This document shows positions 12,284 to 60,449 of a stretch of DNA of 64,000 nucleotides, in pieces. The stretch is from Eledone cirrhosa (taxonomy: Eukaryota), in contig OZ024740.1 of the NCBI GenBank assembly GCA_964016885.1, forward strand, positions 106,454,001 through 106,518,000. Reading direction: 5' to 3'. Under the pieces are notes generated by a model. That model did not search any database. It was not told the DNA's origin and saw nothing but the letters and a program-made list of their open reading frames with translations. The translations under genes and the position numbers were made by a program. Each line of letters starts with the position of its first letter. Position 1 is the first letter of the stretch.

Positions 12284-12371
12284 CTTCGACTACGTAGTTT
12301 CGTGGCATAAACAAAAACAATACATCATATAGATATAGAGCCTTTGCGAGGTCTGCCGACTTATCAAGAGG
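12284..12371 (-). ncRNA. Hammerhead variant, U3-A8 core
   Basis: cctc TTGATAA gt-c-ggca...tgcc-ac GAAA ctacgtag TC gaag. Palindromic stem III; stem I has one mismatch. Confidence 0.55.
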
Positions 12372-13461
12372 ATACCTCGTTTTACTAGCCTCGAGAACGC
12401 GTCTATATGATGTGAGAAAGTATCCCAAAAGGCGGAGGGGGAGACAGTCACGTGATACAACGGTCAAGAAACAGAGCTAAGCCCCTTATAACCCCGAAAA
12501 AAATATATATGTGTGTATGTGTGTATATATATATATTTTTGAAGGTGTTATTTGACGATAACACCCCAGTGAGAAAGTTTGCTCCGAACGAATTGCGCGT
12601 GTTCGAAGGAACATGCAGCCGTAGAAACAGCCAGATCCATACAGTGACCATGTCTCGAGCTACCTGCCGGCGAAACAATTGTAAGACGCAAAAAGCTGAG
12701 TCAGATGCATCACTGATTTTTCCTTTTTTATACGATACACACAATTCTCTGTATGAATATTGAGTGCTAATTTTGGCATACCGCCTATGGAAGCACCATA
12801 GCTACCATTATACACAAGTATATATATATATATATATATATATATATATATATATATATATATATATATATATATATATTCTAGAACACATGTCGTTATG
12901 AGGCTTTTTACAAACAAACCATGAGCTGATTAATAGCGAAATGCCAGTCACTTGAACAACGTAATCCATGTGGCGTGAATAGGAAAATCAACAGCCAGAA
13001 ATAGCAGCCGAGCCTATTCAACTGAATTATCTCAACAATCAAGGGGTCATATATTTATCCAAAATTAAAATTAAGGGTTGTCATGTCTGAGAGACATGAG
13101 TCATATCCACCGTAGAATAAGCTCAAAGATTAGATCCGAGCATTACATATCAACTAGAAATAGATTGACATATATATATATATATAAAACAAATACATGA
13201 ATCAATCACAGGGAACAATTTGTAAAGAATGTAAGCACAGAAATAACAACCCTTAATTTTAATGTTGGATATATATACGGCCCCTTGATTGTTGAGATAA
13301 TTCAGTTGAATAGGCTCGGCTGCTATTTCTGGCTGTCAATGGTCCTATTCACGCCACTGGGATGACGTTGTTCAACGTGTGCATTCTTTAAAAAATGCAA
13401 CTCGTGGTTCGAATCATTCACAGATTTGCATTTGCCGTGTAAACACACATGGTTATTTTCT

Positions 13462-13556
13462 TCTCCTTTGGTGAACATCCAAGAATTTAACTGCTGTGAT
13501 TTACGGATTAATAGGTGAAATATATTTTGTACTTAAAGAAATATATACAAAGGAGA
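13462..13556 (+). ncRNA. Hammerhead variant, G3-C8 core, long stems I and III
   Basis: tctcctttg GTGAACA tcc...ggt GAAA tatattt-loop-aaatata TA caaaggaga. Perfect 9-bp stem I. The homologue at 28144 has canonical CTGATGA. Confidence 0.72.
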
Positions 13557-14360
13557 TTAATCATTTTAAAAGGTATCTATAATCAAGTTCTAGTCAAACT
13601 TTAATTAGTTACTTACCTAGCTATATGTGCTTACATTCTTTACACATTATTCCCTGTGATTGCTTCATGCATCTATCTTATATATATATATATGTCAATC
13701 TATTTCTAATTGATATCTTTGAGGTTATTCCACGGTGGATATGGCCATGTCTCTCAGACATGACAACCCTTAATTTTAATTTTGGATATATGTATATATA
13801 CATATATATATACATATACATATAGATATATACATATACAAATACATATATACATATACATATAGATATATACATATACAAATACATATATATATACATA
13901 TACGTATATGTATATATATATACATATATATATATATATATGTATATATAAACATATACATATACATATACATATACATATATATATATACATATATATA
14001 TTTATATACATATATATATACATATATATACATATATATATATACATATATATATATATAGATGAAATCTTCAGGAAGCTGGGTGTCATATTAAGTTCTG
14101 GTATTTATACATTTAGGTAGTGGTAAGGGAGGGGTGGTGGAAGGGGGGGAGGTTTGGGGTGGGATGGTATTTAATTTTGGATAAATATATGACCCCTTGA
14201 TTGTTGAGATAATTCAGTTGAATAGGCTCGGCTGCTATTTCTGGCTGTTGATTTTCCTATTCACGCCACATGGATTACGTTGTTCAAGTGACTGGCATTT
14301 CGCTATAGATCAGCTCATGGTTCGTTTGTAAAAAGCCTCATAACGACATGTGTTCTAGAC

Positions 14361-57355: not shown

Positions 57356-59255
57356 CGTTCGACACCACTACGGTGACATCGTCCGCATATGCTGACACGG
57401 ATCTTCCGCATCCTAGTTCGCGCGGGACCCCCCCTCAACGTCTCCAGTTTGTGCATTAATGGCTCGAGAGTCAATACGTACAAGAGGGACGAGAGGGGAC
57501 ATCCTTGGCGGACCGAGAGCATGATGTTGAACGGTTCCGAAAATTGACCGTTCACTCTCACCACAGAGCAGATGTCGCTGTGCATGGCAGCGATCCAGCC
57601 TCTGAAGACGGGCCCAAGCCAGCCGCCCTCAGGACTGCCGCTAGGTAACGATGGTCGAAACTATCGAAAGCTTTCGACTGATCTAAATTGATCAAGGACC
57701 CCCCCCCCGTGCCAGGTTCCCTAGCCACCCTCTCCACGTGTATCGCATGAGGTGAAGGTTGTCGTGGATGGATCTGTCGGGAATGGCGAATGTCTGTGCC
57801 TCTCCCACCAGACCACCAACGACAAGCGCCAACCTCTTTTCTAGCGCCTGGGCCAAGATCTTGAACTCTGTGTTTAGCAGTTATGGGCCTGAAATAATCT
57901 ATGTTATCCCCCTTGTTCGGATCCTTTCTCAGCAGCGCCATCGCTCCTCGGCTCACAGAGCTGGAAATTCTCCCGTTCTATTGCCAGTTGCAGTAGACGT
58001 CCGCCAAGAGACCTTCGAACAAGTCTGGCATCTGTACGTAAAGTTCATAGGGCAGACCATCCAAACCAGGCGATTTACCCCTTGTGCAGCCAGTCATTGC
58101 CTCCCGTACTTCAGCGGCTGTTATCGGCTTTTCGCAACACTCCGCCTCAGTGGCCGAGAGACGCGGCAGTCCGTCGAGGTAGACACTAAAGTCCATCCCT
58201 CGATCCCGCTCGCCGCTGCCCCCCAACAACTGAGCGAAGTGTCGCTGAAAAGCTTCACACATTTGCCCGGGATCGAGTAGCATGCGCCCGTCGTGGTCCA
58301 CCAAAGACCGGATCGTGGCTTTGTTGCTCTATTTTTCTCTATTGCGAAAGCCTTACTAAACCTAATGGACTCTATTCTAATCGCTCTTTTCAAAGCAAAC
58401 CACCACTTGTTGTTGACGATGGCCCCCGTCAACGCCCGCTTAACTAGTTCGCTAATCCGGTCTCTGTAGGCCTTGCGCGCTGGTAAGGACGCGTTTAGCT
58501 TCCAGTAGCCGGGTCCTCGTCTATGAAGCTTATCTAAGTCAAGCACACAGATCACGAATTTGTGGTCCGTGTAGCTGACTATCTTGAATTGTGTATAGCC
58601 TATGCTAGACCTATCTATTTCTCTACAAAATACTCTATCTAGATATGATCTGGATGACCCTATGCGATTTGTCCAAGTCCACATTGGCACATTCGGGAAA
58701 TCCAATCTGTACCTGTCAGACAGTTCAAAACGCCTGAGCAGGTTGGTGAGGCTCTTGCACCCTCCTCCCTTATCCGCTAATCCCACACAGTCCCAGCGTG
58801 CATCTAAGATCCCGTTCCAGTCGCCTACTAACACTAAAGAGCGGGACGTTCCAAGAAAGGTCTCCAGACGCCGGAAGAAATCAGGCCGCCCTGCTCCTGT
58901 CGGGGCATAGACGGCCATTAGCCTGAAAGCTTGCCCGTCTCCGCTGGTCACGTCTAGCACCACCAACTTACCTTCTGGGTCCAGGATGATGGCCTGTATG
59001 GAGAGATCCAAACCTCTCCGAAAAAGCACAGCAACTCCACCCCCCGATCCCGGACGGCTGGGAGATGCGTACACATCCTAGCCACCGAAGATCGGTGCTA
59101 AGGCCTGTGCTTCGGAGATTCTGGTTTCGCTGATGGCCACTACATCTATGTTTAGTGACCTGAGGTCGCTGAGCAAGTGGCCCTGCTTCCATGACGACCC
59201 CAAGCCACGCACATTTATGCTGCCTATTCTGAGTGAGGTCATGTTATACTGCCTG
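57356..59255 (-). mobile_element. Tx1/L1-clade LINE ORF2 5' half (AP endonuclease and RT to YADD)
   Basis: MTSLRIGSINVRGL, VAISET, VYAP, GDWN, YLDRVF, TDHK, KSPGLDGLPYE, LDQSKAFD, VRQGCPLS, SAYADDVTV. Several frameshifts. Confidence 0.93.
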
Positions 59256-59269
59256 GATATATATATATG

Positions 59270-60449
59270 AACAAAATCCTCCAAACACACAACATCATAA
59301 AGAGCAAAAGACAACCTAAATCCATAAAAAACATCCTCACACAAGCCAAAATCCAACAAACCCTCACAATGAACCCTACAGTAACAAAATGCGGAAGGCC
59401 CAACTGTGGCATATGCATAAAGCTAATAGGAGGTTCAACATTCCATTTTAAACAAGGACAACATTTCACAGTTAAACACAACTTTACATGTGCATCTGTA
59501 AACCTAATCTATGTTTTGACCTGCTCATAGGACAGACAAAATACAGCCTCCGACAACGTATGACCGTCCATAAATCACAAATACAGGAACACAGAAAGAT
59601 TGCATTTAGTGAACATATCGCCAATTGTGCTCACAATATCCAAACTTTAAAATGTTCCCCATTTACAAATTCATAGACAACGCTACTTTCATCCATCGTA
59701 CTAATAAGGAAACATATTTCATTAACAAATTTCAACCTCTACTTAATGCACTAAACTTCAGGCCAAACTAAAACTGGAACAAACATTTTCAAGAATTACC
59801 TCCCTCACACCCTAACTAATCCTTTTTCTTAAATAAATTAAATACCATCGAGCATGAATTGCCTCCCCTGCATTAACTCTCTAAAAAGGGAGATCATATC
59901 AAACCAAAGTCCGCCATTTGCCTCCATCATGGATCAACTAAGCACTCTTGCTATATTAACACATTTGGATCTGCTTAACTTCAAGAACTATGCCTGTAAA
60001 TAACATTATTTTTTCTTTCACATTGACTTTTTATGCTCCACATTACGTTCCTCTTTTTCTTTTTTCTTTTTTCTTTTTTCTTTTTTCTTTTTTCTTTTTT
60101 CTTTTTTCTTTTTTCTTTTCACTTCATAAACCTTGTTTGTTAATAACATTATTCTTTCTGCACCATTTCTTTAACATATGCAACACCACCATTCTACACT
60201 AATACATATCACTATCATTTGATAATGCATACAAATGCTGAAACCGGTAATAGACAATTATTAAATATATAAATAGATAAATAAATGCCATTGTTAATTA
60301 ATAAATAAATCAACTAATACCTTAACACTTCACACAAAGTAAAATATTTCGTTTTAATCATTTTCTAACCCAGAAAAAAGAGAGAAAGAAATAAAAAGGG
60401 AAAAAAATATATTTTTCTTCCTAATAATCGTCTCTTTCTCCCTGTTTTC
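59270..60449 (+). mobile_element. Penelope-like element 3' fragment (Cys linker, GIY-YIG, pLTR)
   Basis: KCGRPNCGIC...HNFTCASVNLIYVLTC / IGQTKYSLRQRMTVH / KETYFINKFQPLLN. Bounded by (TA)n. Confidence 0.88.
60215..60254 (+). ncRNA. Minimal hammerhead, U3-A8 core, in the Penelope pLTR
   Basis: tcat TTGATAA t-gcat acaa atgc-t GAAA ccgg TA ataga. Confidence 0.62.

Follow-up and report, generated by a model that had tools for sequence, protein, structure and literature searches.

Replacement of the C3-G8 pair of the hammerhead ribozyme core by U3-A8 has been described in two settings that frame the six U3-A8 motifs reported here, which belong to four repeat families (A to D) in a 64,000-nucleotide (nt) stretch of the 3.0-Gb genome of Eledone cirrhosa (GCA_964016885.1, contig OZ024740.1, positions 106,454,001 to 106,518,000; "the window"). 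Perreault et al. (2011, PMC3088659), who state the role of the 3-8 pair in the hammerhead core, report natural U3-A8 in several hammerheads described as already active in vitro, and Cervera and De la Pena (2014, PMC4209133) report it in the Cercyon Penelope elements of Schistosoma, with ~1,300 matches and low activity of the tested dimers. In the supplement of the latter paper a U3-A8 motif of S. mansoni stands next to an almost identical C3-G8 motif of S. japonicum, and the three mollusc rows there are all C3-G8. The pair itself is not new, having been published in 2011 and 2014. The closest non-coding systems are the animal retrozymes that lack long terminal repeats (non-LTR retrozymes), tandem units of low GC content with one type I hammerhead each, for which an origin from the terminal repeats (pLTRs) of Penelope elements has been proposed (PMC7229834; bioRxiv 10.64898/2026.07.22.740005). 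Our literature search, from whose coverage most subscription journals fell outside, returned no paper on cephalopod U3-A8 hammerheads or on a natural A13C family, and terms for the variant are absent from PMC11014351.

Against this background, U3-A8 in the window is a real, family-level compensatory pair with good support that adds one more case to a published variant; the pair is the same as in PMC3088659, with scattered examples there and whole transposon families here. The Eledone motifs share with Cercyon of S. mansoni the type I fold, a place in the pLTR of an element encoding reverse transcriptase (RT) and a GIY-YIG endonuclease, a palindromic 15.2-16.2 region that implies dimers, and U3-A8. 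They differ in their host, in number (here ~38,000 copies with families summed, slight overlap being possible), in the lack of an extra base between A9 and 10.1 (families A, B and E), in their longer palindromes (4-8 nt), and in a ~58-nt stem II arm (A/B), a U.U closure (D) and a GCAA box (G); the family letters A to J, N1 and N2 are labels of this study. Families A (~593 bp), B (~567 bp) and J (316 bp), known here from DNA alone, fit the non-LTR retrozyme type, A and B being longer than the 150-450 bp range of PMC7229834, whereas the preprint gives lengths up to 972 bp. We consider it highly probable that Penelope-like retroelements (in the case of D) and non-coding repeats that they likely mobilise (A, B and C) carry the window motifs as minimal type I hammerheads, with U3-A8 as an inherited consensus; the swap likely leaves an active-site pair in place, by which intact copies would be able to cleave themselves, slowly and as dimers.

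All six heptamers named in the initial annotation exist and lie in type I minimal hammerhead folds, four of them on the minus strand; the positions given there refer to each motif's left edge, to within 1 nt, and not to the heptamer itself. The motifs are as follows.

12283..12372, minus strand: family A hammerhead, copy 1; U3 at 12367, H17 at 12288; stem III palindrome intact, stem I of 2 contiguous base pairs (bp)
15665..15754, plus strand: family A hammerhead, copy 2; U3 at 15670, H17 at 15749; same stem I truncation, C-to-U change at 15.2
19726..19818, minus strand: family B hammerhead; U3 at 19813, H17 at 19731; stem I of 5 bp, stem II of 6-7 bp, stem III palindrome partly decayed
36538..36582, minus strand: family C hammerhead; U3 at 36577, H17 at 36543; stem I of 6 bp, G.U-closed stem II of 5 bp, near-palindromic 6-nt loop III
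31453..31493, minus strand: family D hammerhead, solo copy; U3 at 31488, H17 at 31458
60214..60254, plus strand: family D hammerhead in a 3' pLTR; U3 at 60219, H17 at 60249; U.U at 10.1/11.1, CCGG palindrome, 2-bp stem I

The core boxes (N3-UGA-N-N8-A and GAAA), U16.1-H17 and a Watson-Crick 3-8 pair are present in every one. The claim that GAAA and stems II and III are intact holds for GAAA in all six and overstates the stems: stem III consists of 1-4 bp around a palindrome and reaches full length only as a dimer, and stem I has 2 contiguous bp in D and in both window copies of A. Stems I and II can form in B, C, E and full-length copies of A, the window A copies being truncated and D weak (2 bp, U.U closure). 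The stem III palindrome is perfect in A, in D and in the majority of family B, and C is near-palindromic with two U.U pairs; computed self-duplexes of the stem III strand amount to -8.3 to -13.4 kcal/mol for A, D, E and intact B and to -4.6 kcal/mol for C. Stem I of D has a pairing probability of 0.0 in the monomer fold; monomer folds were not used as a test of activity, because intact C3-G8 motifs fold poorly as well.

To place these motifs in the genome, we applied a structure descriptor that left positions 3 and 8 free and required GAAA (and hence missed family G) to 80 evenly spaced stretches of 10 kb from contigs C1-C4 (800 kb; 36% GC, as in the window). It returned 82 motifs, comprising 70 C-G, 8 U-A and 4 other combinations, compared with a mean of 3.2 motifs per shuffle in five dinucleotide shuffles of the same sample, so the window motifs are not due to chance. 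A stricter version returned 60 motifs (48 C-G, 6 U-A and 6 other); 24 of the 70 C-G motifs in the first count come from a single tandem family, without which C-G to U-A stands at 46:8. A scan of the window with Rfam gave no hammerhead at the gathering threshold for either U3-A8 or C3-G8 motifs, and none among the 150 listed of the 273 weak matches. Since the C3-G8 motifs of the window are missed too, the failure is due to the minimal build of these ribozymes and not to U3-A8. As had been claimed, a search for CUGANGA cannot match the U3-A8 motifs.

Family by family, U3-A8 proved to be the consensus. Exact-flank searches with positions 3 and 8 free gave 5,904 genome matches to family A, of which 5,892 have A8 and none of the remaining 12 has C3; U3-A8 is found in 99 of the first 100 among the matches listed, and there is no C3-G8 copy among the 5,904. 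The pair is present in 13 of 14 matches to B, in 17 of 17 to C, in 98 of the first 100 among the matches listed for D (854 in total) and, for N2 (735 in total), in 97 of the 100 listed first; no C3-G8 copy occurs among the first 100 matches listed for each of D, N2 and G. Genome-wide, within the one subclass defined by G10.1-C11.1 and a loop III of 4 nt, we counted 20,503 U-A (mostly family E), 9,693 C-G, 166 C-A and 176 U-G motifs, with 47, 183, 28 and 46, respectively, in reversed-pattern controls. U3-A8 therefore dominates the tabulation of 3/8 combinations per family, and mismatched combinations are not as frequent as U3-A8, making up 1.1% of the subclass total, as post-insertion decay would give. 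This low share reveals the state of the master copies and is not in itself proof of selection. The assertion that both changes always occur together is borne out for families A to D; elsewhere in the window, at 51097(+), a copy of a C3-G8 family is U3-G8. A tally of 26 families (11 U-A and 15 C-G) cannot expose a mismatched family, because a paired core was the defining criterion.

The carrier of family D can be recognised from its coding remnant and its terminal repeats.

59267..60469, plus strand: 5'-truncated Penelope-like element, apparently of Neptune type, followed by a (TA)n tract
59267..59768, plus strand: broken 3' end of a Penelope-like open reading frame (ORF), in which a linker zinc finger (CX4CX2C) and the remains of a GIY-YIG endonuclease are spread over several frames
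31235..31769, minus strand: family D pLTR fragment, 84.6% identical to 59908-60469

The hammerhead at 60214..60254 lies ~450 nt downstream of the endonuclease stop, in the 3' pLTR, and at 6 of 30 D loci, the window included, a GIY-YIG ORF ends 420-450 nt upstream of the hammerhead on the same strand. Cysteines of the linker and endonuclease (CX2-5CXXC, CCHH), as read from the translations, fit the Neptune type defined in PMC8557442, so that, by motif only, the D carrier would be a Neptune-type Penelope-like element. With the endonuclease-bearing (EN+) Neptune clade of that paper it has in common a C-terminal GIY-YIG domain, two cysteines between GIY and YIG, the CX2-5CXXC linker, microsatellite targeting, and tandem and inverted pLTRs. 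The RVT_1 domain was scored on relatives of D, N2 lying above the cut-off and E at 28.5 bits, just below 29.6; the longest open frame of D itself has 380 amino acids (aa). Separately, Penelope-like frames of 844-1,096 aa between stops occur in families E and N2 (L252, L253, L258) and suggest recent activity; several close database homologues of these frames are filed under mollusc-symbiont assemblies, possibly through host contamination. Family G, the sister of D, combines U3-A8 with a GAAA box changed to GCAA (97 of the first 100 among 9,984 matches) and has a 3-bp A-U stem I, and thus fails the GAAA box of the type I minimal hammerhead. As an observation in its own right, G (L248, L225, L257) is young and abundant, and may be either a dead passenger or an undescribed active core. 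N2, with 735 copies, has almost no stem I. The U.U pair at 10.1/11.1 was considered as a sign of decay in D and rejected, as two C3-G8 families share it.

Families A, B and C are non-coding; no Penelope-like ORF lies upstream in sense at 60 A, 14 B and 22 B-like loci. The A unit, ~593 bp long, is often tandem or inverted, with a spacing of 591-597 bp in many arrays, and the remaining rows for these families are the following.

12270..12874: arm 1 of an inverted duplication, carrying A copy 1 (family A unit at ~12286-12536)
15161..15767: arm 2 of the inverted duplication, carrying A copy 2 (family A unit at ~15499-15751)
19623..19952, minus strand: part of a family B unit, homologous to family A (unit ~567 bp, tandem at L147)
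36293..36701 and 36885..37016 (span 36293..37016), minus strand: family C repeat, interrupted by an abundant ~190-bp repeat

The two A copies of the window are one local inverted duplication (99.0% identity over 607 nt), in which stem I is lost because the family sequence stops 2 nt past the cleavage site. Among 59 A sequences there are 35 distinct 3' ends, of which 16 lie 76-81 nt and 13 lie 238-246 nt past the cleavage site; these two sharp classes lie ~165 nt apart, nearly all 3' ends abut (TA)n, and 5' ends are scattered. This is the pattern of target-primed copying, and the two preferred ends recall, in longer form, the Penelope tail of PMC11167929. A reading of the ends as marks of the cleavage site was rejected, as only the duplicated window copy ends there and the 33 other 3' ends do not. 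Apparent coding partners of A (L030/L344, L240) were likewise rejected, being elements of other families with A inserted beside or inside them. Contigs of four sequencing runs aligned to the A unit showed no difference at core positions among those listed, which has no bearing on expression or cleavage; low-depth matches in two further organisms were left out of account. Family C is old and of low copy number, mostly in single copies without clear arrays.

The initial annotation had described four independent families, a count that does not stand. B shows 70% identity to A over 141 nt upstream (partly microsatellite), the ribozymes align nearly gap-free and one profile finds both, so that A and B are one lineage, with B an older relative of A; the four window families accordingly represent at most three lineages. 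A C3-G8 sister of A/B was sought, and of 34 matches 33 were B-like copies with an upstream CUGANGA-like box; no sister was found. In such B-like subfamilies (L285-L309) this box lies 12-13 nt upstream of the U3-A8 box, and since the search pattern selected for it, it may mean nothing. For the Penelope families we read 70 loci out of the 150 GIY-YIG matches listed (the top 30, plus 40 chosen mainly because their frames were long). Each of the families D, E, G and H has U3-A8 and a CCGG palindrome, and together they form one clade (support 96/82 with 43 rows and 98/100 with 19 rows), and D inherited U3-A8 by descent shared with E, G and H. N2 is likewise U3-A8, whereas N1 has C3-G8. The hypothesis that D, E, G, H and N2 go back to a single origin is not rejected (p-AU 0.3), and no ribozyme was found for the outgroup of the Penelope tree. 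A second, separate case is provided by a tandem-repeat superfamily of ~310-316 bp, in which 7 of 12 rows are C3-G8 (L328 and L080 against L139, L140, L094 and L109). Its tree, built without the ribozyme columns, unites four U3 rows (3 A8, 1 G8) at 100/100 and leaves a fifth U3-A8 row unplaced. At least two origins of U3-A8 in this genome are thereby shown, assuming that C3-G8 is the older state in the superfamily. Stem III of these ~310-bp repeats ranges from a 4-nt palindrome to a small hairpin.

In the mechanism that we propose, two units of one transcript would pair via the palindromic stem III, U3-A8 would stand in for the tertiary C3-G8 pair, and cleavage 3' of H17 would trim multimeric RNA to unit length, which a Penelope RT/GIY-YIG protein could then copy into (TA)n. 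The switch from C3-G8 to U3-A8 would consist of two transitions, plausibly via a U3.G8 wobble, and would have occurred at least twice in the genome before spreading by transposition. On sequence grounds we expect that intact dimers of A, B, C or E would probably cleave; cleavage by D is doubtful and that by the A copies of the window very improbable, so that the latter are likely inactive and D likely weak. Stem covariation also speaks for the main reading. Across 14 related rows (13 from A/B and the C3-G8 row L206), 95.6% of cells are paired and 8 of 13 stem pairs show two-sided changes, a number reached in 0 of 500 shuffles; within A/B alone there are four such changes (two in stem I, one in stem II and one in stem III), and position 7 takes all four bases, with U3 and A8 fixed in the 13 A/B rows.

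Several observations weigh against this interpretation. Row L206, whose homology to A/B is unproven, alone contributes four of the eight two-sided changes, including that of the 3-8 pair, and the shuffles ignore the relatedness of rows, so the A/B covariation is supportive and not a probability. A small old family with 13 matches, of which 8 were read, has 3 C-G, 3 U-G and 2 C-A cores; we read its mismatched cores (5 of 8) as decay. The 3' ends of A lie mostly away from the cleavage site, its 5' ends being scattered. No coding partner of A, B or C was found in 1.74 Mb. Furthermore, G with GCAA at ~10,000 copies and N2 with almost no stem I demonstrate that U3-A8 lineages can spread with damaged ribozymes, and cleavage was unnecessary for Penelope insertion in vitro (PMC11167929).

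The last of these points lead to an alternative in which the U3-A8 hammerheads of the Penelope clade are relaxed passengers, the swap having cut activity and weakened selection on cleavage while the motif was copied regardless; we hold this to be possible, though unlikely. It would account for the 9,984 copies of G with GCAA and a 3-bp A-U stem I, for the 2-bp stem I of D that stays unpaired in the monomer fold and for the 735 copies of N2 with no convincing stem I, and it agrees both with the in vitro dispensability of cleavage in another Penelope element (PMC11167929) and with the multiplication of Naiads without canonical hammerheads (PMC8557442). However, E (the largest U3-A8 family), H/I, A/B, C and J retain all boxes and paired stems, UGA, A9 and G12 survive even in G and D, as do the palindrome and the pairing of stem II, and the U.U at 10.1/11.1, occurring also in two C3-G8 families, is no decay mark linked to U3-A8. 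That the motifs arose by chance, or are C3-G8 copies that decayed by taking both transitions after insertion, has next to no probability: single mismatches do arise by decay, as at 51097, but the absence of C3-G8 from 5,904 A matches and from the first 100 listed for D, N2 and G, together with the 82 motifs against 3.2 in shuffles, refutes it by counts.

The initial annotation had further suggested that an AT-rich genome favoured the swap, and a related scenario of four independent compensatory events, driven by AT-biased mutation, appears quite improbable to us. Both changes are indeed GC-to-AT transitions, at least two origins are shown (the Neptune clade and the ~310-bp repeat clade) with A/B and C as possible further ones, and GC content around U3-A8 is lower when computed per variant (0.296 versus 0.344, p=0.002). 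This last signal was discounted, because variants of one family are counted many times; per family, GC is 0.338 for 11 U3-A8 and 0.345 for 15 C3-G8 families (p=1.0), and per lineage the difference gives p=0.44. In addition, the two most GC-rich families are A and B, which are homologous; the tree is compatible with one origin for D, E, G, H and N2, and C3-G8 accounts for 70 of 82 motifs in the unbiased 800-kb sample. The suggestion of an AT effect is not supported. Inheritance of U3-A8 as a family consensus on Penelope-like elements and the repeats that they likely mobilise is our preferred reading.

In practical terms, tens of thousands of motifs in this genome would escape a search limited to CUGANGA. 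There are also matched natural pairs for measuring the cost of the swap, namely J (U3-A8) versus its C3-G8 relatives, and E, D and G versus N1, and the same pairs bear on whether Penelope elements need cleavage, a question left open in PMC8557442 and PMC11167929. The residual interest lies in G, with ~10,000 copies that join U3-A8 to GCAA. As a speculation that we advance tentatively and think rather unlikely, the families might form a natural experiment on the need of Penelope for its ribozyme: after the U3-A8 switch in one Neptune-type clade, the hammerhead would have decayed in still-amplifying coding families (G, D and N2), while non-coding tandem repeats dependent on unit-length RNA (A/B and J) held on to a U3-A8 ribozyme with complete pairing; or else GCAA may mark an undescribed active core.

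Beyond these families, the window is rich in microsatellites and broken retroelements. It holds at least nine ordinary C3-G8 hammerheads of other families, at 3799(-), 10785(-), 11282(+), 18131(+), 31869(-), 37631(+), 39423(+), 41633(-) and 44125(-), and further GIY-YIG remnants at 10734-11078, 29217-29573 and 40219-40797. U.U instead of the usual G-C at 10.1/11.1 is seen in at least three families and in either core state (60219(+), 31488(-), 37631(+), 18131(+); L262). A tRNA-like match lies at 38598-38668(-) (41.3 bits), and a 27-bp minisatellite, together with a highly abundant dispersed repeat in tandem copies of ~205-208 bp, occupies 41043-41380, 52346-52953 and 9745-10120.

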